Assembly (NCBI GenBank): GCA_030754595.1
Contig: JASLZZ010000028.1
Location: forward strand, 1-14,316
Direction of reading: 5' to 3'
Length of the DNA: 14,316 bases
DNA from: Nitrospinota bacterium
GTDB lineage: Bacteria > UBA8248
The notes under the pieces are model-generated. The model was not told the DNA's origin and ran no database searches. It saw only the letters and a list, made by a program, of their open reading frames with translations. Both the position numbers and the translations under genes were made by a program. Shown here one piece after another: positions 1 through 10,872 of the stretch; the first letter of the stretch is position 1, and each line of letters opens with the position of its first letter.

Positions 1-42
1 GTAAAATAAATTCTGCCAAAGCGAATCACATTCTTATAACAA

Positions 43-50
43 AAGGAGGT
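43..50 (+). promoter_or_regulatory. Shine-Dalgarno site for the Cys-rich small ORF
   Basis: AAGGAGGT at 43-50, 5 nt before ATG at 56; near-perfect anti-16S complement. Confidence 0.8.
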
Positions 51-55
51 TCACC

Positions 56-211
56 ATGTGTTTCTTTTGCGGATGTTTTTGTGGATGTGGCGGAGGAGGA
101 CCATTTCAGAGCGTGAAAGTCATCCTTCCTTCGGAGATAAAAACGCTACCAAGCGATCAAAAGGACCCCTCTTTTTTGAAAAAGACGGGGAAAGAAAATC
201 AAAAGGGCTGA
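56..211 (+). CDS. 51-aa Cys-rich small protein/peptide, MCFFCGCFCGCGGGGPFQSVKVILPSEIKTLPSDQKDPSFLKKTGKENQKG (not in ORF track)
   Basis: Manual translation from ATG 56 to TGA 209-211; very strong RBS; 5 Cys in the first 11 residues followed by GGGG. Confidence 0.7.
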   Translation: MCFFCGCFCGCGGGGPFQSVKVILPSEIKTLPSDQKDPSFLKKTGKENQKG

Positions 212-239
212 TCGCCAATTCCTCGCGGGGAGAATTCAT

Positions 240-689
240 ATGAACCTTTTTGAGGAAGCCAAGCGGAATATGGAAGAGATCAGCGGGGAGGCCGATTTCT
301 TCGAGAAAGCCCGCAAGAAAAAGAGGCAGATTATTTCTGGAGATTATTTTTTTGCGGGCCCTTACTGAGCAAAGCTGGTTTTTCGCTTGGAACCCATCAT
401 CGAGTGGACAAGCGAAAAATGGGCGGCCCTGGAAGGGCTCGCGGAAGAGTTCGGTCTCAGCATCGACGTCGAGAACGCCATTCACCTCCAGGAAGGCGCA
501 GAGAAAAAGGAAATTGCCTCCATTCACGAGATCGGGGCCGAAAACGACATCCGAATCATCCCGGATTACGAGAAGGGCAACGAACTCTTGATGGCCATCG
601 GATCACAGATATTTGAGGCACAGGCTGCCTCGTGTGGGGTGCCCCTCCAGCCACATTTCTGGACCGGCAACTCCTTTGTCCCGTGTTAG
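240..689 (+). CDS. Putative selenoprotein, 149 aa, in-frame TGA at codon 43 (context DYFFAGPY-U-AKLVF); possible thioredoxin/DsbA-like fold
   Basis: RBS GGGGAG 227-232 and ATG 240. The frame continues through a single TGA (366-368) into track ORF 387..689 and ends at TAG. A strong hairpin lies just 3' of the TGA. The C-terminal GVPLQPHF has the spacing of the DsbA-type GVxxxPxF cis-Pro loop. Confidence 0.65.
374..424 (+). promoter_or_regulatory. SECIS-like stem-loop downstream of the in-frame UGA
   Basis: TTTTTCGCTTG (379-389) pairs perfectly with CAAGCGAAAAA (409-419), extendable by GCT/GGC (374-376/422-424). Inner stem CCAT/GTGG (394-397/404-407). The perfect stem begins 10 nt after the TGA. 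Confidence 0.6.
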
Positions 690-761
690 CCCACGGCGTT
701 GGAGTTTCACCCAGAATTCCCAAATGACTTGTAAATCCGCCTTATATATTTCCTTGGCATA

Positions 762-779
762 TTCCCGTCCAAACGGGAA
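762..779. terminator. Possible terminator hairpin between convergent genes
   Basis: TTCCCGT-CCAA-ACGGGAA perfect 7-bp inverted repeat in the 690-815 gap; no clear U-tail. Confidence 0.3.
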
Positions 780-815
780 ATCCGGGTTTAACCTGTTGAA
801 CTTTAATCCCTTACC

Positions 816-1247: not shown

Positions 1248-2957
1248 TTACGGGGTGATGATTGTGGGAGAATCGGGCTCCGAGCCAACAGGTTCCGGGC
1301 CGCCGCTCTCCTCGCCATGCTCATGACCGTGGCCTTGGTCTTGCGCCTCCTGGCTCTGCCGGATCGCACGCTCGAGCATGGCGCCGATGGAGTAACGGAC
1401 CACCTCGGTGAAGAAGTCGGGTTGCGGCCCGCCCTCTCGCAGACGGTCGGCCAGTGAAATAATCTGGCTGGCGAGGGCAGCCTCCCCTTGTTGATGAAGC
1501 AGGTAGGCATTGTCCTCGAGTTGAAAACTGAGGCGTCGCAGTAAATCGGTATTGTTATAGAGTTCGCCCGCGGCTTCCTCTATCGCCTTGTCAAACAAGA
1601 TGCGCCGCTGCTCGTCGTCCGTCGCCACCTGGCTCTGAAGCGCCTCGACGCATTTCTGAAAGTGGGGGACGATCAAACCCTCCTCGATCACCCAGGCCCA
1701 AAAAGCGGAATTACCAAAAATATCCTTGTGAGCGATTCGCCCATCCTCGCCCGAAGCCGACTGGACCAACGCCCGCACCGGATGATCCCCCGGAAACGGA
1801 AACACCTCCGGATCGGCCAGGGGAGCGAGGAGGATCCGCGAATGGGTGAAACCCTGGGGAATCGCCGAGCCGCTCCCGCTTTCGTTTTCCTGCTGTCCCC
1901 GCTGGAGGAGCCAAAACGCGTAACCCGCGGGAACCTCCACGGACGGCAGCCTTTGGTCCTGGGTCAACCTTCCGAAAAACTCCCGCAGCTCTTTCGAGGA
2001 CATATCGGTTGAAACAAATTCCTGAATTCCCCGGCCGTGCCTAAGCCTCGCCTGAAAGATAGAGCGCCCCCTCGGCTGGCGCGAACGCGCGATCCAGAGA
2101 ATGAGGTTTCCGGCGCCATCGACCGAACTGACGATGGCTTTGACGTAATCGAGCCCATGCGAGGCGAGGCGAGGGCCTATGGACGATGAATCCTCCTCGG
2201 GAGCAACGCCCTTGCCGCGAAGCCGGAATAGCGCCTTTCGAATACGTGAGCCGGCAGCCTTGTCCTTCACGGAATCGGCCAGGCGCGAGAGGCCCTCGAC
2301 CGCCTCCGTCGTGGCCTCAGCCGTCATTGTATCGATTAAAACCGGTGGCGGAGCCGAACCCCGCGCCGCGAACGCATCCGCAAGCGCGATCGCCGCCTGA
2401 ACCCGGACGCTTCCGGCACTCTCCCCCGAAAAGGCGTCCCGAAGGGCAACTTCCCGAAGGGAATCGGGAAGAGAATCAAGAATTTCGCTGATCGCGCCGG
2501 CCGCTTCGTCCGATAATCGATCGGCATCGGCGAGATCATCGGCAACTTTTCGCGCCCGCGCGATAGCGTCGCCGTCGAGTTCGGCGGGAATTTTCACCCC
2601 CGCGTCGAGCGCCTGAATGGTTTCTCGGAGTGCGAACAGATCGTCCGGCGCCCACCTCAGGGACCCGACGCGCTCTAAAAGACCGGGGACGGCTGCGGCA
2701 TCTCCAAGCTCCCGAATCGAGCTTAGCGACGCGGCCCGACCCTCGGGAGCGGTAGCCGCCAGATGCTCGAGCATGCCGGCGACTCCGACCTCGCCCATCT
2801 CCCGAATCTCGTCAATCAAGGGCGCGGGAGCCATCGCCCCCGGCTGAGGCGGATCGGTGAACGAGGCCTCGAGGCCCACTGCGATTGCCCGCGCATGTTT
2901 CAATTCCTGCGGAGAATAATTTTTTTTCGATGATTTTTTCTTTGTTTTTTTCGCCAC
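1248..2957 (-). CDS. Conserved hypothetical protein, 569 aa, helical/HEAT-like N-half, His/acidic C-terminal tail
   Basis: Long ORF, GTG start with GAGGA RBS, protein-like composition; 27-nt gap to the VOC gene suggests co-transcription; function not recognised. Confidence 0.8.
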   Translation of the reverse strand: MAKKTKKKSSKKNYSPQELKHARAIAVGLEASFTDPPQPGAMAPAPLIDEIREMGEVGVAGMLEHLAATAPEGRAASLSSIRELGDAAAVPGLLERVGSLRWAPDDLFALRETIQALDAGVKIPAELDGDAIARARKVADDLADADRLSDEAAGAISEILDSLPDSLREVALRDAFSGESAGSVRVQAAIALADAFAARGSAPPPVLIDTMTAEATTEAVEGLSRLADSVKDKAAGSRIRKALFRLRGKGVAPEEDSSSIGPRLASHGLDYVKAIVSSVDGAGNLILWIARSRQPRGRSIFQARLRHGRGIQEFVSTDMSSKELREFFGRLTQDQRLPSVEVPAGYAFWLLQRGQQENESGSGSAIPQGFTHSRILLAPLADPEVFPFPGDHPVRALVQSASGEDGRIAHKDIFGNSAFWAWVIEEGLIVPHFQKCVEALQSQVATDDEQRRILFDKAIEEAAGELYNNTDLLRRLSFQLEDNAYLLHQQGEAALASQIISLADRLREGGPQPDFFTEVVRYSIGAMLERAIRQSQEAQDQGHGHEHGEESGGPEPVGSEPDSPTIITP

Positions 2958-7377: not shown

Positions 7378-8295
7378 TCAGAATCTCCGCAATACAATAA
7401 ACCGGGCGAGGGCGGCGAGCGCCGGAGCCCCCCCCTCAAAAGCGGCCAGAGCGCCGATGGCCTCCTCGGTCACCCGCCGGGCCATCTCCTTCGAGGCATC
7501 GAGGCCGTGCAGGGCCGGATAGGTGACCTTTTCCTGGTCGGCATCCGTTCCCGTTGATTTTCCCATTAATTCAGCATCGCCCTCGACGTCGAGAATATCA
7601 TCGACTATCTGAAAGGCGAGCCCCGCTTTCTCTCCGTAACGGGCGAGGGCGCTCATCTCATCCGGGCTCCCGCCCCCGAGAAGCCCCCCCATATAGACCG
7701 ATGCCCGGATCATGGCCCCGGTCTTCCGGCGGTGAATTTCCTCGAGTTCGGGAGGATCGCTCACCTTACCACCCGCGCGGATGTCGAGAAGCTGGCCTCC
7801 CACCATGCCCGTCGCGCCGGCCGCTTCGGCCAGAATCCGGACGCCTTCCATGGTCCGTTCCGGCCCGGCCGAATCGGCCATCCTTTCGCCGGTCATGAGT
7901 TCAAATGCCAGGGTCAGGAGGCCGTCCCCACCCAGTATCGCCGCCGCCTCGCCGAATACTTTGTGGCTGGTGGGATTGCCACGGCGAAAATCGTCATCGT
8001 CCATCGCGGGAAGATCGTCATGAATGAGCGAATAGGTGTGGATGCATTCCAGGGCGCAGGCGGCGGGAAGCACCAAATCGGGAGCGCCGCCCACGGCTTC
8101 GGCCCCTGCGACGCAGAGGATCGGGCGAAGTCGCTTCCCCCCCGCAAAAAGGCTGTAGCGCATAATCCGAAACATTTCGGAGGGCTCGCCGCCATCCTCC
8201 GGAACCAGGTGATCGATGGTTTCCTCCACACGGGCGGCCCACTGCTTCATATAGGCGGCGGCGTCCACCCGGGCGGCGCCGGAATCAAGGCTCAT
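7378..8295 (-). CDS. ispA: Farnesyl diphosphate synthase / geranyltranstransferase
   Basis: GGKRLRP, FARM SLIHDDLPAMDDDDFRRG, GGQ, KTG, SARM FQIVDDILD, KVTYP. Confidence 0.95.
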   Translation of the reverse strand: MSLDSGAARVDAAAYMKQWAARVEETIDHLVPEDGGEPSEMFRIMRYSLFAGGKRLRPILCVAGAEAVGGAPDLVLPAACALECIHTYSLIHDDLPAMDDDDFRRGNPTSHKVFGEAAAILGGDGLLTLAFELMTGERMADSAGPERTMEGVRILAEAAGATGMVGGQLLDIRAGGKVSDPPELEEIHRRKTGAMIRASVYMGGLLGGGSPDEMSALARYGEKAGLAFQIVDDILDVEGDAELMGKSTGTDADQEKVTYPALHGLDASKEMARRVTEEAIGALAAFEGGAPALAALARFIVLRRF

Positions 8296-8300
8296 GCCGT

Positions 8301-8576
8301 TTATTCTTCCTCTTCCTCGTCTTCATCCTCGAAAGAGCGAAGAGAGAGAACCTCCTCCGCTTCGCCCGCAAGCTCCTCGACGCGCTTTTGCGCGGAGTCG
8401 AGTTGCTCGCGGCAATAGCGGAAAAGCGTCACGCCTTCCTCATAGAGGCCAACGGCTCCTTCTAAAGGGGCCTCGCCGCCTTCGAGCTCTTCAACGATTT
8501 CCTCGAGGCGCTCAAGTGCCTCCTCGAAATTTTCGGGGCCTTTCTTCGATGAAGCGGATTTTTTCGCCGCGTTCAA
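8301..8576 (-). CDS. xseB: Exodeoxyribonuclease VII small subunit
   Basis: FEEALERLEEIVEELEGG...LYEEGV...L..AQKRV. Likely TTG start at 8576 overlaps the xseA stop (TTGA) and follows an AGGAGG RBS; track start 8615 is less likely. Confidence 0.93.
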   Translation of the reverse strand: MNAAKKSASSKKGPENFEEALERLEEIVEELEGGEAPLEGAVGLYEEGVTLFRYCREQLDSAQKRVEELAGEAEEVLSLRSFEDEDEEEEE

Positions 8577-9976
8577 GGTCCTTCTCCTCCTCTCAAGCTC
8601 TCCTCCACCCGGCATGTCAGCATACCTTCGGAAAGACGCAGACGCACTCGTTCACCCACACCAGCCTGCTCCGCCCGGCGGAGCAGTGCACCGTCGTTTT
8701 CCCTGTAGGCCAAACTGTACCCACGGGCCAGGACCGCCAGCGGGGATACGGCTTCCAGCCGCCCCGCGGCGCCGTGGAGAGCCGATGCCTTTCGCTCCCG
8801 GCCACTTTCATCCGCCAACCGCAACCGGCGCATCATGTCCGAAAGATCCTCCACGCTCCGGCGCACCGCAGCGTCCGGCGAGGAGGCGGCCAGCCTCGGC
8901 AGGATGGCGCGAAGACGGGAAAAGCGGGCGGCTTCGGCGTGCCGGGCCTCCCGCCACATACGCTCGAAAAGGCTATCCACCCGCTGCGCGAGAACCCCCA
9001 GGGCGTCCTCGGGACGCCGGAGGGTCCGCTCCGCCCCGATGGCCTCAAGGCGCGCTTCGAGTTCACCGATTCGAGCCTCGGTCAGCCGGTTCAATGTCTC
9101 GGTCATTCGGTCCAGATCGCGGGAAAGCATCTGCCAGCCCCGGGCCACCACCTCGGCCGCCGCGGTCGGTGTGGGGGCGGCGGCGTCCGCGGCCAGATCG
9201 CTCAGCGAAGTGTCGATTTCATGTCCCACCGCCGACAAAACCGGGGTCTCGCAATTTACTATCGCCCTGACGGTCACTTCTTCGTTAAACGCCCAGAGAT
9301 CCTCACGGCTTCCCCCGCCCCGGCCCACGATGATCAGATCGGCCGCCCGTTCCATCCCCCGAAGCCCCCGGTCCGCACGATGAAGAGCCGCCGCAATCGA
9401 CTCCCCCGCCTTATCTCCCTGAACAAGGGTGTGCACCAGAACGACCTCGACGATGGGCGCTCTCTCGGACAGCACTCGCAGCATGTCCCTCAAGGCGGCC
9501 CCTTCGCGGCTGGTGACCAAGGCCACCCGCCGGGGACGGACGGGGAGCGGCCGCTTGCGCTCCGGGGAGAAGAGACCTTCCTTTTCGAGGCGCTCCCTCA
9601 GTTGGCGAAAGGCCACCTCGAGAGCGCCCTCGCCGAGCGGCTCCATCGACAGGACGGAGAGCTGAAAACGGCCGTCGCGCTCGTAGAGCGTCACGCGGCA
9701 CTTCAACAGAACGCGCATGCCGTCCTCGGGCTCGAAGCGCAAGAATCGGCGGCGGCCCGAGAACATGACCGCGCCCACCTTGGCAGTGGCGTCTTTAACG
9801 GAAAAATAAGCGTGGCCCGAGGGGTAGGTTCGCCAGGAGGTCACCTCTCCTTCGACCAGGACTTCGGCGAACTCCCCCTCGAGGAGGCCTTTGACCCTGG
9901 AATTGAGCTGGGAAACCGTATAGACGGGCGGCCCCGCACCGGCGGAAGCGGAAGGACCCAGAAGATCGGCGCTCAC
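8573..9976 (-). CDS. xseA: Exodeoxyribonuclease VII large subunit
   Basis: YTVSQLN, SGHAYFS, RGGGSREDLWAFNEE, AVGHEID, PTPTAAAE, SPLAVLARGYS. Confidence 0.97.
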   Translation of the reverse strand: MSADLLGPSASAGAGPPVYTVSQLNSRVKGLLEGEFAEVLVEGEVTSWRTYPSGHAYFSVKDATAKVGAVMFSGRRRFLRFEPEDGMRVLLKCRVTLYERDGRFQLSVLSMEPLGEGALEVAFRQLRERLEKEGLFSPERKRPLPVRPRRVALVTSREGAALRDMLRVLSERAPIVEVVLVHTLVQGDKAGESIAAALHRADRGLRGMERAADLIIVGRGGGSREDLWAFNEEVTVRAIVNCETPVLSAVGHEIDTSLSDLAADAAAPTPTAAAEVVARGWQMLSRDLDRMTETLNRLTEARIGELEARLEAIGAERTLRRPEDALGVLAQRVDSLFERMWREARHAEAARFSRLRAILPRLAASSPDAAVRRSVEDLSDMMRRLRLADESGRERKASALHGAAGRLEAVSPLAVLARGYSLAYRENDGALLRRAEQAGVGERVRLRLSEGMLTCRVEESLRGGEGP

Positions 9977-10005
9977 GCGGGTGTACTCACTCAGAGGGCG
10001 GAAGA

Positions 10006-10872
10006 TTAGCCGGATGCATGGTCGCGGAACGCCCGGACGGTATTGGCCATCAGCATGGCCACGGTCATCGGACCCACACCGCCCGGAACGGGGGTAATCG
10101 CCGAGACCTTCACGACGAGGGCGTCATAATCACAATCGCCCACCAGCTTTTCGTCGACGCGATTGATGCCGATATCGACGACCACGGCACCCTCCTTCAC
10201 CATATCGGCTGTCAGGAATTTAGGGCGGCCGAGGGCGGCGACGACGATATCGGCCTCGCGGGTGACCGCCCCGATATCGGATGTACGGGAGTGGCAGACG
10301 GTGATCGTCGCGTTCTCGTGCAAGAGTAAAAGCGACAGCGGGAGGCCGACGATTTTGGAGCGCCCGATCAAGGCGACGGATTTACCCTCGATTTCGATTT
10401 CGTAGTGTTTGAGCATTTCGATGACGCCGGCCGGGGTGCAGGGACGAAGAATCCCCTGCTTCAGGGCCATGCGCCCAAAATTCTCGGGGTGGAATACATC
10501 GACGTCCTTATCGAGGGCGACGGCGCGGAGGGCCTCCTGCTCGTTCAGATGACCGGGCAAGGGTAACTGTATAAGAATTCCATCCACTGCGGGGTCTGAG
10601 TTAAGGCGGCTTATGAGGTCGAGAAGGTCCCCTTGATCGAGATTTTCGGGTATGCGGTGGTCGAAAGTGAGGATGCCCAATTTCTTGGCGGTTCGCTCCT
10701 TGATGCGGACGTAGACCTGGGAGGCGGGGTCCTCCCCCACCAGGACGACGGCGAGACCGGGCGGGCGGCCGGTCTTCGCAGCGAGGCCCTCGACTTCGGA
10801 GCGAAGCCCTTCAGTCAGTTTTTCGGCGACGGGCTTTCCCTTCATGACAATAGCGGAGGTTTTCTGTTCCAT
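10006..10872 (-). CDS. folD: Bifunctional methylene-THF dehydrogenase/cyclohydrolase
   Basis: PGLAVVLVGEDPASQVYV, QLPLP, KDVD, PCTPAG, GRSKIVG, DIGIN, TPVPGGVGPMT. Confidence 0.97.
   Translation of the reverse strand: MEQKTSAIVMKGKPVAEKLTEGLRSEVEGLAAKTGRPPGLAVVLVGEDPASQVYVRIKERTAKKLGILTFDHRIPENLDQGDLLDLISRLNSDPAVDGILIQLPLPGHLNEQEALRAVALDKDVDVFHPENFGRMALKQGILRPCTPAGVIEMLKHYEIEIEGKSVALIGRSKIVGLPLSLLLLHENATITVCHSRTSDIGAVTREADIVVAALGRPKFLTADMVKEGAVVVDIGINRVDEKLVGDCDYDALVVKVSAITPVPGGVGPMTVAMLMANTVRAFRDHASG

Follow-up and report, generated by a model that had tools for sequence, protein, structure and literature searches.

Does the TGA at codon 43 of a small reading frame in a Nitrospinota bacterium end a gene, or is it read as selenocysteine (Sec, U) within a longer one? 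The question is raised by positions 240 to 689 of contig JASLZZ010000028.1 (assembly GCA_030754595.1), of which a stretch of 14,316 nucleotides, here called the window, was analysed; the source genome is labelled G000 and the window is its contig C28. An earlier note, made from the letters alone, had proposed that a selenoprotein is hidden in this place, possibly one of a new thioredoxin/DsbA-like family. The first part of the proposal is strongly supported by a TGA conserved among relatives, by homologues that carry cysteine (Cys) in its place, by the Sec genes of the genome and by a hairpin downstream of the codon. From these sequence comparisons, the probability that positions 240 to 689 form one selenoprotein gene with Sec at codon 43 is put at about 0.85 to 0.9, and as the overall best explanation of the locus this reading stands at about 0.85.

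The layout of the frame was found as the earlier note had described it, with all coordinates in agreement: it opens with ATG 240, holds a single in-frame TGA at 366-368 and then runs through 106 sense codons to the TAG at 687-689. A gene caller sees the 3' part alone, as an open reading frame (ORF) of 100 amino acids from TTG 387, which is codon 50. That such genes are split by gene callers was borne out by the databases, where 34 of 34 close proteins (at least 68% identity) are 3' fragments of 82-100 residues with differing first codons. The starts chosen for these fragments are codon 46 or codon 50, and N-terminal fragments of 42-54 amino acids have been called as well. Since every record seen splits the gene in this way, the whole family is invisible in its Sec form.

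Orthologues were found by six-frame search in four other genomes among the 60 relatives searched, and within the phylum 5 of the 51 genomes examined carry one, G000 included. A scan of genome contigs returned the same four genomes, all of them metagenome-assembled genomes of Nitrospinota, and a scan of metagenomes added two further contigs, so that seven loci could be compared (the window, four genomes and two metagenome contigs). Codon 43 is TGA in all seven, with identical frame, spacing and length. In the six other loci the similarity extends to both sides of the TGA, as had been predicted for a single gene, with 68-81% protein identity to the window over the full length. Each relative locus has its own start codon, ATG or TTG, behind a purine-rich site. 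The numbers of variable first, second and third codon positions are 18/17/35, 2/2/4 and 25/16/57 in three segments, the third position being the highest throughout. Directly after the TGA, codons 44-46 show nothing but synonymous change in six of the seven loci (GCA/GCC/GCG, AAG/AAA and CTG/CTC/TTG).

Outside the close relatives, the codon is matched by Cys. When 1.84 billion representatives were searched with a profile of the seven read-through proteins, 21 proteins emerged, including several uninterrupted full-length relatives, and a second search by word index with a mixed alignment found 154, the full-length ones having 130-156 residues. The named sources of the full-length Cys forms are Meiothermus, Deinococcus or Deinococcota. 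In an alignment of 105 rows, the column of residue 43 (U43) counts as Cys in 97 of the 97 rows with a residue there, 7 of them TGA rows and 90 with a true Cys. The search for homologues with Cys at the TGA column, which the earlier note had suggested, has thus returned 90 distant full-length proteins, mostly from Deinococcota. In the same alignment His82 is found in 105 of 105 rows, Gly40 in 98 of 98, Phe48 in 101 of 101, Lys45 in 97 of 98 and Glu91 in 104 of 105, and the invariant His stands 39 residues after the Cys or Sec. The motif GLGGSCGKPAF is present in all 40 Cys-form proteins that were fetched. In a profile-profile comparison (hhalign), the Sec and Cys groups match with a probability of 99.6% (E = 8.7e-25, residues 7-131), and U43 is paired with the Cys of GGSCGKPAF. 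On these alignments the pairing is the classical Sec/Cys signature. Judged in the same way, the proteins, about 131-145 residues long, form an unnamed family that is defined by the motif G-x-x-[C/U]-[G/A]-K-x-x-F together with a His that never varies (H82) and a Glu that hardly does (E91).

Duplicated forms were also observed on the Cys side of the family. P0040, P0056 and P0057, two of which are among the 40 fetched proteins, are tandem-duplicated forms of 268 residues in which AGFGC[G/A]K occurs twice. The Cys family possibly also occurs as two tandem genes after copA on plasmids of Deinococcus aetherius and D. grandis (L042 and L048), a reading drawn from adjacent small ORFs and two matching places per record. 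Finally, the profile match P0047 (689 amino acids; positions 25-73, E = 7e-10) is composed of 12 tandem repeats with CGGSGCARIIVSVEF and is possibly a spurious accumulation of repeats.

The genome was found to contain the Sec machinery that the earlier note had proposed to look for. The genes selB (364.5 bits), selA (551.8), selD (345) and that of tRNA-Sec (73.6 bits) all score above curated cut-offs; selA and selB lie on contig C113, selD on C16 and tRNA-Sec on C102. The selD gene itself has one in-frame TGA. Among 16 AhpC-TSA matches in the genome, 8 have an in-frame TGA, in UxxC, TxxU and UxxU contexts. These matches, on contigs C65, C17, C109, C43, C110 and C114, are probably further selenoprotein genes; in the match at C109:8334-8717 there are two TGAs, which would give UPYU (UxxU). 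Nitrospinota are counted in a published report among the bacteria richest in selenoprotein genes, with 48-54 each (PMC13326102).

A bacterial selenocysteine insertion sequence (SECIS) is expected as a stem-loop just 3' of the UGA. The perfect 11-bp stem to which the earlier note had drawn attention was found, 379-389 (TTTTTCGCTTG) pairing with 409-419 (CAAGCGAAAAA), and it is separated from the TGA by 10 nt. Within the 14.3 kb of the window it is the sole non-palindromic inverted repeat of at least 11 nt with arms no more than 40 nt apart. The 65-nt fold from the TGA has an energy of -24.4 kcal/mol (z = -3.17; none of 200 shuffles as stable), and for the 71-nt stretch 360-430 the z-score is -2.10, with 8 of 200 shuffles as stable. 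The consensus structure is two-tiered, with a lower core UUUUCGC/GCGAAAA, an internal loop and an upper stem of 4 bp (CCAC/GUGG), and the apical loop CAUCGA begins about 30 nt past the UGA. Across the seven loci 93.3% of the paired cells are kept, against 42-54% with the partners slid by 1-3 columns, and in genome G004 the hairpin is retained in a shifted register via different bases. The hairpin is thus compatible with a SECIS and well placed, and is not diagnostic alone. In the textbook mechanism, SelB with Sec-tRNA(Sec) would bind the hairpin at 375-423, and Sec would be inserted at codon 43 with no termination.

Several observations weigh against this reading. A compensatory change is found in only 1 of 15 hairpin pairs, and 59-71 of 500 shuffles reach the observed scores; since covariation is so weak, the conservation of the hairpin could largely stem from the conserved peptide F-R...[R/G/S]-E-K. 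The loop CAUCGA is unlike the small G-rich loops that follow other in-frame TGAs of this genome, and an Rfam search over 300-500 gave no family match, the chance matches having E of about 7. Among the close relatives (at least 68% identity) no Cys form exists, which an arrangement of two genes would predict as well. The protein of the window is without the neighbouring U or C found in four relatives and has Tyr-Sec instead. Finally, the full-length homologue P0036 has Gly at column 43. It also has Gly at residue 132, the site of the family's TGA stop, followed by 13 more residues; because this second site is likewise Gly, Gly43 is read as a translated TGA, and we infer that the source of P0036 probably translated TGA as Gly.

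Of the alternatives to a single selenoprotein gene, the one that survives best, while still quite improbable, is that of two separate genes, a 42-codon ORF ending at TGA 366 and a second ORF that re-initiates by coupling under regulation by the hairpin. The database records agree with it on both sides, the 34 close proteins being 3' fragments and pieces of 42-54 amino acids from the N-terminal side having been called too; the tandem TGA-TGA of three relatives resembles a reinforced stop, and the hairpin would bury codon 50. The second gene would, however, be in want of a start. Codon 50 is TTG in one locus, CTG in four, GTG in one and ATG in one, and there is no other conserved start. Because this codon varies and the fragments begin at differing codons, the 3' part is considered to be without a conserved start of its own, and codon 50 (L/V/M) was ruled out as a hidden start on account of the CTG in four of seven loci. 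The synonymous change at codons 44-46, with frame and spacing fixed in all seven loci, also argues against two genes. In addition, the distant homologues are uninterrupted chains that have Cys in the column of the TGA and resemble the Sec form before and after it, and the predicted model folds residues 1-131 as one domain in which strands from either side of the TGA are paired.

A reading of the UGA as something other than Sec, by near-cognate insertion of Trp, Cys or Arg or by a reassigned code, is less probable again and can be given very little weight. It draws on P0036, which is recorded with Gly at both TGA positions of the family. On the contrary, TGA is a stop in this genome and is the family's own stop in four relatives, and the genome combines the full Sec machinery with many other in-frame-TGA genes that show UxxC-type motifs. 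The aligned residue is moreover Cys, the hallmark of Sec. The weakest candidate, scarcely credible, is a pseudogene with a nonsense mutation or a TGA due to sequencing error: the window copy has lost the normal stop (TGT at codon 132) and lacks the U/C that four relatives have at codon 42, but the same TGA occurs in seven independent assemblies, which alone refutes the error reading, both halves are under purifying selection with no frameshifts and no equal change at the three codon positions, and a 10-member, 97%-identical cluster shares the tail of the window's protein.

One selenoprotein gene is therefore the reading retained. The earlier note had named beforehand what would speak against it, namely residues other than Cys at the TGA column, homology on one side of the TGA only or a genome lacking Sec machinery, and everything on this list that was checked came out in favour of a selenoprotein. 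The recoding mechanism itself is textbook, and no account of the selenoprotein family was found in open-access text.

The codon that precedes the Sec codon is also of concern. G010, G041 and G004 have TGA at codon 42 and G037 has TGC, whereas the window has TAC and the two metagenome contigs have CGT or CGC; in the Cys forms the equivalent residue is Ser, Gly or Ala. Since codon 42 varies to this extent, the position is not essential to the family. By their sequences, three lineages appear to encode Sec-Sec and G037 appears to encode Cys-Sec. A vicinal Cys-Sec pair is known from animal thioredoxin reductase, where it lies in the C-terminal GCUG. The adjacent Cys-Sec of G037 and the TGA-TGA at codons 42-43 of G010, G041 and G004 are alike to it; unlike it, the pair here is placed in an internal beta-hairpin turn and not in a C-terminal tail, and codon 42 is non-conserved. 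Phrase searches of open-access text turned up neither an account of this family nor one of adjacent Sec-Sec in a bacterial gene. In the same way, the adjacent-Sec motif is absent from a 2022 table of 87 prokaryotic selenoprotein families, whose few unnamed "hypothetical" families are not comparable (PMC9312934).

What kind of protein is encoded was addressed by structure prediction. An earlier AlphaFold2 model from a shallow alignment had a predicted local distance difference test score (pLDDT) of 60.5. With a deep alignment, pLDDT rose to 87.5 and the predicted template modelling score was 0.79, residues 1-131 being mostly above 90. The model contains helices (H) and strands (E) in the order H3-16, H20-27, E31-33, E36-42, E45-50, H58-70, E73-77, E81-85, E90-98, E101-106 and H113-125, and U43 is predicted in a tight turn between strands 36-42 and 45-50. 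According to this confident model, the protein would be a small cytoplasmic alpha+beta domain that presents its Sec on the tip of a beta-hairpin. Foldseek with the confident model found nothing at E ≤ 0.001 (best 0.053, a biotin ligase), which was the check proposed for a thioredoxin fold and yielded no significant neighbour in the PDB. The best match by VIA-align among 48,161 chains had a Z of 5.8 (root-mean-square deviation 2.6 Å over 71 residues, CPSF73 C-terminal domain), under the tool's background of 7-8. No thioredoxin-fold entry was among the matches listed by Foldseek or VIA-align, an absence from a list that does not amount to exclusion of the fold. A sequence-profile search of the PDB had nothing below E = 0.11, and the ESM Atlas had no usable match. 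Pfam and NCBIfam searches with the read-through protein, both its halves and the distant Cys forms found no family (thioredoxin/DSBA models at E ≤ 1 and ≤ 0.1), in line with the remark of the earlier note that it is not a named selenoprotein family.

The thioredoxin/DsbA-like identity is not supported, as there is no CxxC or UxxC motif, no match to a sequence model, and an element order of H-H-E-E-E-H-E-E-E-E-H. The residues before the Sec, PY-U, had been compared to a CPYC motif. Codon 41 varies across the family (P/Y/F/N/T), as does codon 42 (Y/U/C/R), P and Y being the residues of the window, which reads G-P-Y-U-A-K and has no Cys within three residues of U43; the family motif is GxxCGK. 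Two other arguments for DsbA turned out to lie outside the family altogether. The supposed cis-Pro loop, GVPLQPHFWTGNSFVP (residues 134-148), is located beyond the family's stop codon and occurs in no relative, and both extra Cys that were seen as resolving thiols (in SCG and at the terminus) belong to residues 132-149, a stop-loss tail. The closest relative outside the window's cluster, P0003 (87% identity), ends in ...GAQSGSI without this tail. On comparison of the sequences, the C-terminal tail was gained recently in this lineage through loss of the stop codon (TGA to TGT) and is not part of the family. Of the 149-residue selenoprotein that had been announced, the Sec-containing product is strongly supported, while its last 18 residues fall outside the family core. 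What is shared with thioredoxin/DsbA-type selenoproteins is that they are small bacterial selenoproteins split by gene callers; the differences are the want of UxxC/CxxU, the other order of elements, a claimed cis-Pro that sits in the tail and the lack of a family match.

Three further identities were tried and ruled out. A C-X5-R motif of phosphatase or ArsC type (U43...R49) is contradicted by Leu at position 49 in 88 rows. An HMA/CopZ metallochaperone would be recognised by the Pfam HMA model and by MxCxxC, neither of which was found. Glycine reductase selenoprotein A (GrdA) would be marked by the Pfam GRDA model and by CxxU, but there was no Pfam match, and in NCBIfam only a sub-threshold one to phosphate acetyltransferase (E = 0.014).

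A prediction of the oligomeric state was obtained from the Cys-form P0049, for which a homodimer scored 0.72 and the best of three controls 0.02; the 0.72 mark is reached by 20 of 30 proteins solved as same-chain pairs and by 1 of 23 solved as single chains. At least 80% of the contacts agree between the three runs, and the pLDDT of the partner is at least 83. The interface is formed by residues 49-55 and 58, which flank the Cys, and by 89-96, which contain the invariant His. The prediction supports a homodimeric Cys form in which the Cys loop and the invariant His would lie at the two-fold interface.

The genomic surroundings of the Cys form point to metals. In all 13 plasmid records (12 from Deinococcus and one from Meiothermus), it is the next gene on the same strand after that of a copper/heavy-metal P-type ATPase; in two of the 13, a further small ORF lies between the ATPase and the Cys form, and each of these records has two matching places. 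In 11 of the 13, an annotated CsoR-type regulator and an HMA/CopZ gene are found alongside, and other copper genes are often near, such as those for a four-helix-bundle copper-binding protein, DUF305, CueP and a multicopper oxidase. From this neighbourhood and the predicted dimer, a role of the family in soft-metal stress (Cu(I), or metals of the Hg/Cd/Ag type) has slightly better than even odds. Cu(I) is favoured because of the copA, CsoR and CopZ neighbours.

In Nitrospinota the gene is preceded by a different set of neighbours. Window 1-19 is identical to the final 19 nt of contig C70, also from G000, and this overlap indicates that the contigs are adjacent and that the MerR-type regulator at C70:9198-9704 lies just upstream of the window. 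The regulator is 64% identical to that of G010 and has the Pfam domains MerR_1, MerR and MerR-DNA-bind; its best NCBIfam matches, CueR, ZntR, MerR and CadR, are all under the equivalog cut-offs. It carries the conserved stretches CWPExTC and SDHxxGxCxC, and such a Cys-rich MerR-type sensor would suit Hg, Cd or Zn too. A MerR-type gene precedes the cassette in four of the seven loci (the window genome, G010, G004 and L035), and the genes upstream of the regulator differ between genomes (EamA, HhH-GPD, RidA and SDR). Between regulator and selenoprotein gene lies an unannotated Cys-rich mini-ORF, whose product starts with MCFFCGCFCGCGGGG and continues with FQSVKVILP; it has no Pfam or NCBIfam match. 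Positions 1-1000 of the window were also scanned for promoters and terminators, which yielded nothing informative. A Cys-rich N-terminus (MCDCCNPG...) is fused to the domain in the distant Cys form P0041.

The order in this genome is thus MerR-type sensor, Cys-rich mini-peptide and selenoprotein, compared to the Cys form after copA in Deinococcota. In the mechanism proposed, the MerR-type sensor would induce the selenoprotein together with the Cys-rich peptide, the peptide may buffer or deliver metal, and the Cys thiolate or Sec selenolate and the His of both subunits would form an inter-subunit site for a soft metal. The complete picture, a dimeric soft-metal (probably copper) family with a selenolate ligand in Nitrospinota, a UGA-UGA read as Sec-Sec on one SECIS in three lineages and a mini-peptide partner under a MerR-type sensor, is put forward as tentative. 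Two facts count against the metal function: it is deduced from gene neighbourhood and predicted models, and the regulator is not constant, being of PadR type in G037 and recognised in neither G041 nor L034.

The main competitor is a real selenoprotein in which Sec or Cys43 serves as a redox or catalytic nucleophile, for example in a selenol/thiol-dependent reductase or repair enzyme under metal stress. Most known bacterial selenoproteins are redox enzymes, as in the 87 families tabulated in PMC9312934. One invariant Cys, in the company of an invariant His and a Glu that is almost always kept, fits a catalytic set, and a glutaredoxin-family gene adjoins the operon in two of the 13 Deinococcota records (H1 and H10). 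Against a redox role, the family has no resolving Cys, no CxxC, UxxC or TxxU and no similarity to any oxidoreductase family. Its constant partner is a metal pump (13/13 records), found with metal-binding proteins, and the predicted interface would bring the motifs of both subunits near each other, as suits a shared metal site. We consider the redox role doubtful, although it deserves to be kept in mind beside the metal-binding one.

If the family binds metal, it has counterparts to which it can be compared. Cu(I) sites across subunit interfaces are formed from Cys and His in CsoR and in CopZ/HMA chaperones. The present family resembles these in being small and cytoplasmic, in its place in the copA operon (13/13) and in the invariant Cys and His at a predicted dimer interface; it differs by having no HMA fold, no MxCxxC and no CsoR helical bundle, and its metal binding is a prediction. 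Metal-handling proteins with Sec have been predicted before, among them MerT-like proteins, a ZntA-type P-type ATPase (UxxC), mercuric reductase-like (UxxU), CopZ-like and MerB-like proteins (PMC9312934). As in those, Sec would replace a metal-ligand or active-site Cys, the lineages are Sec-rich and the SECIS hairpin lies in the coding sequence. Those proteins are, however, Sec variants of named families, whereas the present protein matches no family of Pfam or NCBIfam, lacks a CxxC-type pair and has no significant neighbour in the PDB.

The features of the window that belong to the cassette are collected in Table 1. Other loci present variants of it. At 698-1462 of L035, the MerR-type ORF runs in frame into the Cys-rich peptide, as a fusion or with an internal start at MSTPTTLES. 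The G041 locus is also without the mini-ORF and a recognisable regulator, and about 1.2 kb downstream of its orthologue lies a second, partial C-terminal copy (L029, G041:C61:14087-14200; residues 91-128, 63% identity). On L034, a membrane-protein ORF at 3-782 (minus strand) is divergent from the cassette and contains the stretch LFAPCAFPLFPAY; presumably it is a thiol-transfer membrane protein of the CcdA/DsbD type. In the window itself, two long ORFs at 1248-2957 (minus strand, 569 amino acids) and 8294-10009 (plus strand, 571 amino acids) are without Pfam match, and the other genes are housekeeping ones: glyoxalase-family, Ogt-like, ComB-like phosphatase, TlyA-like methyltransferase, Dxs, polyprenyl synthase and FolD.

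Table 1. Features of the selenoprotein cassette in the window, with positions in the window.
Feature	Positions	Strand	Remarks
Overlap with the 3' end of contig C70 (G000), whose last gene encodes a MerR-family regulator	1-19	+	
Strong GGAGG ribosome-binding site of the Cys-rich mini-ORF, 6 nt before ATG 56	45-49	+	read from the sequence
Cys-rich mini-ORF, 51 amino acids (MCFFCGCFCGCGGGGPFQSVKVILPS...)	56-211	+	invariant C-G-C and F.SV.V..P; 6 of 7 loci
GGGGAG ribosome-binding site of the selenoprotein gene	227-232	+	read from the sequence
Predicted selenoprotein coding sequence, 149 codons and stop, Sec = codon 43; conserved core = codons 1-131	240-689	+	
Start codon ATG	240-242	+	
In-frame UGA, probably read as selenocysteine (U43)	366-368	+	TGA in 7 of 7 loci; Cys in 90 homologues; hhalign 99.6%
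SECIS-like hairpin	375-423	+	lower stem 379-389/409-419 and outer pairs; upper stem 394-397/404-407; apical loop 398-403 (CAUCGA)
TGT (Cys132), stop-loss substitution where relatives stop (TGA in 4, TAA in 1)	633-635	+	codon table
Lineage-specific C-terminal tail by readthrough of the old stop, non-conserved, predicted disordered	636-686	+	pLDDT about 46
TAG stop used in this genome	687-689	+	

The finding adds a selenoprotein family without a named domain or a recognisable fold. If the adjacent codons are both read as Sec, a natural vicinal Sec-Sec site would exist in a bacterium. The TGA-TGA relatives are natural material for asking if a single bacterial SECIS can serve two adjacent UGA codons. 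Should the Sec/His site bind metal, the family would provide a clean natural exchange of Cys for Sec in a metal ligand, which could be compared with the culturable Cys forms. The finding also provides a first lead to the function of the "hypothetical protein" encoded after copA on plasmids of Deinococcus and Meiothermus.

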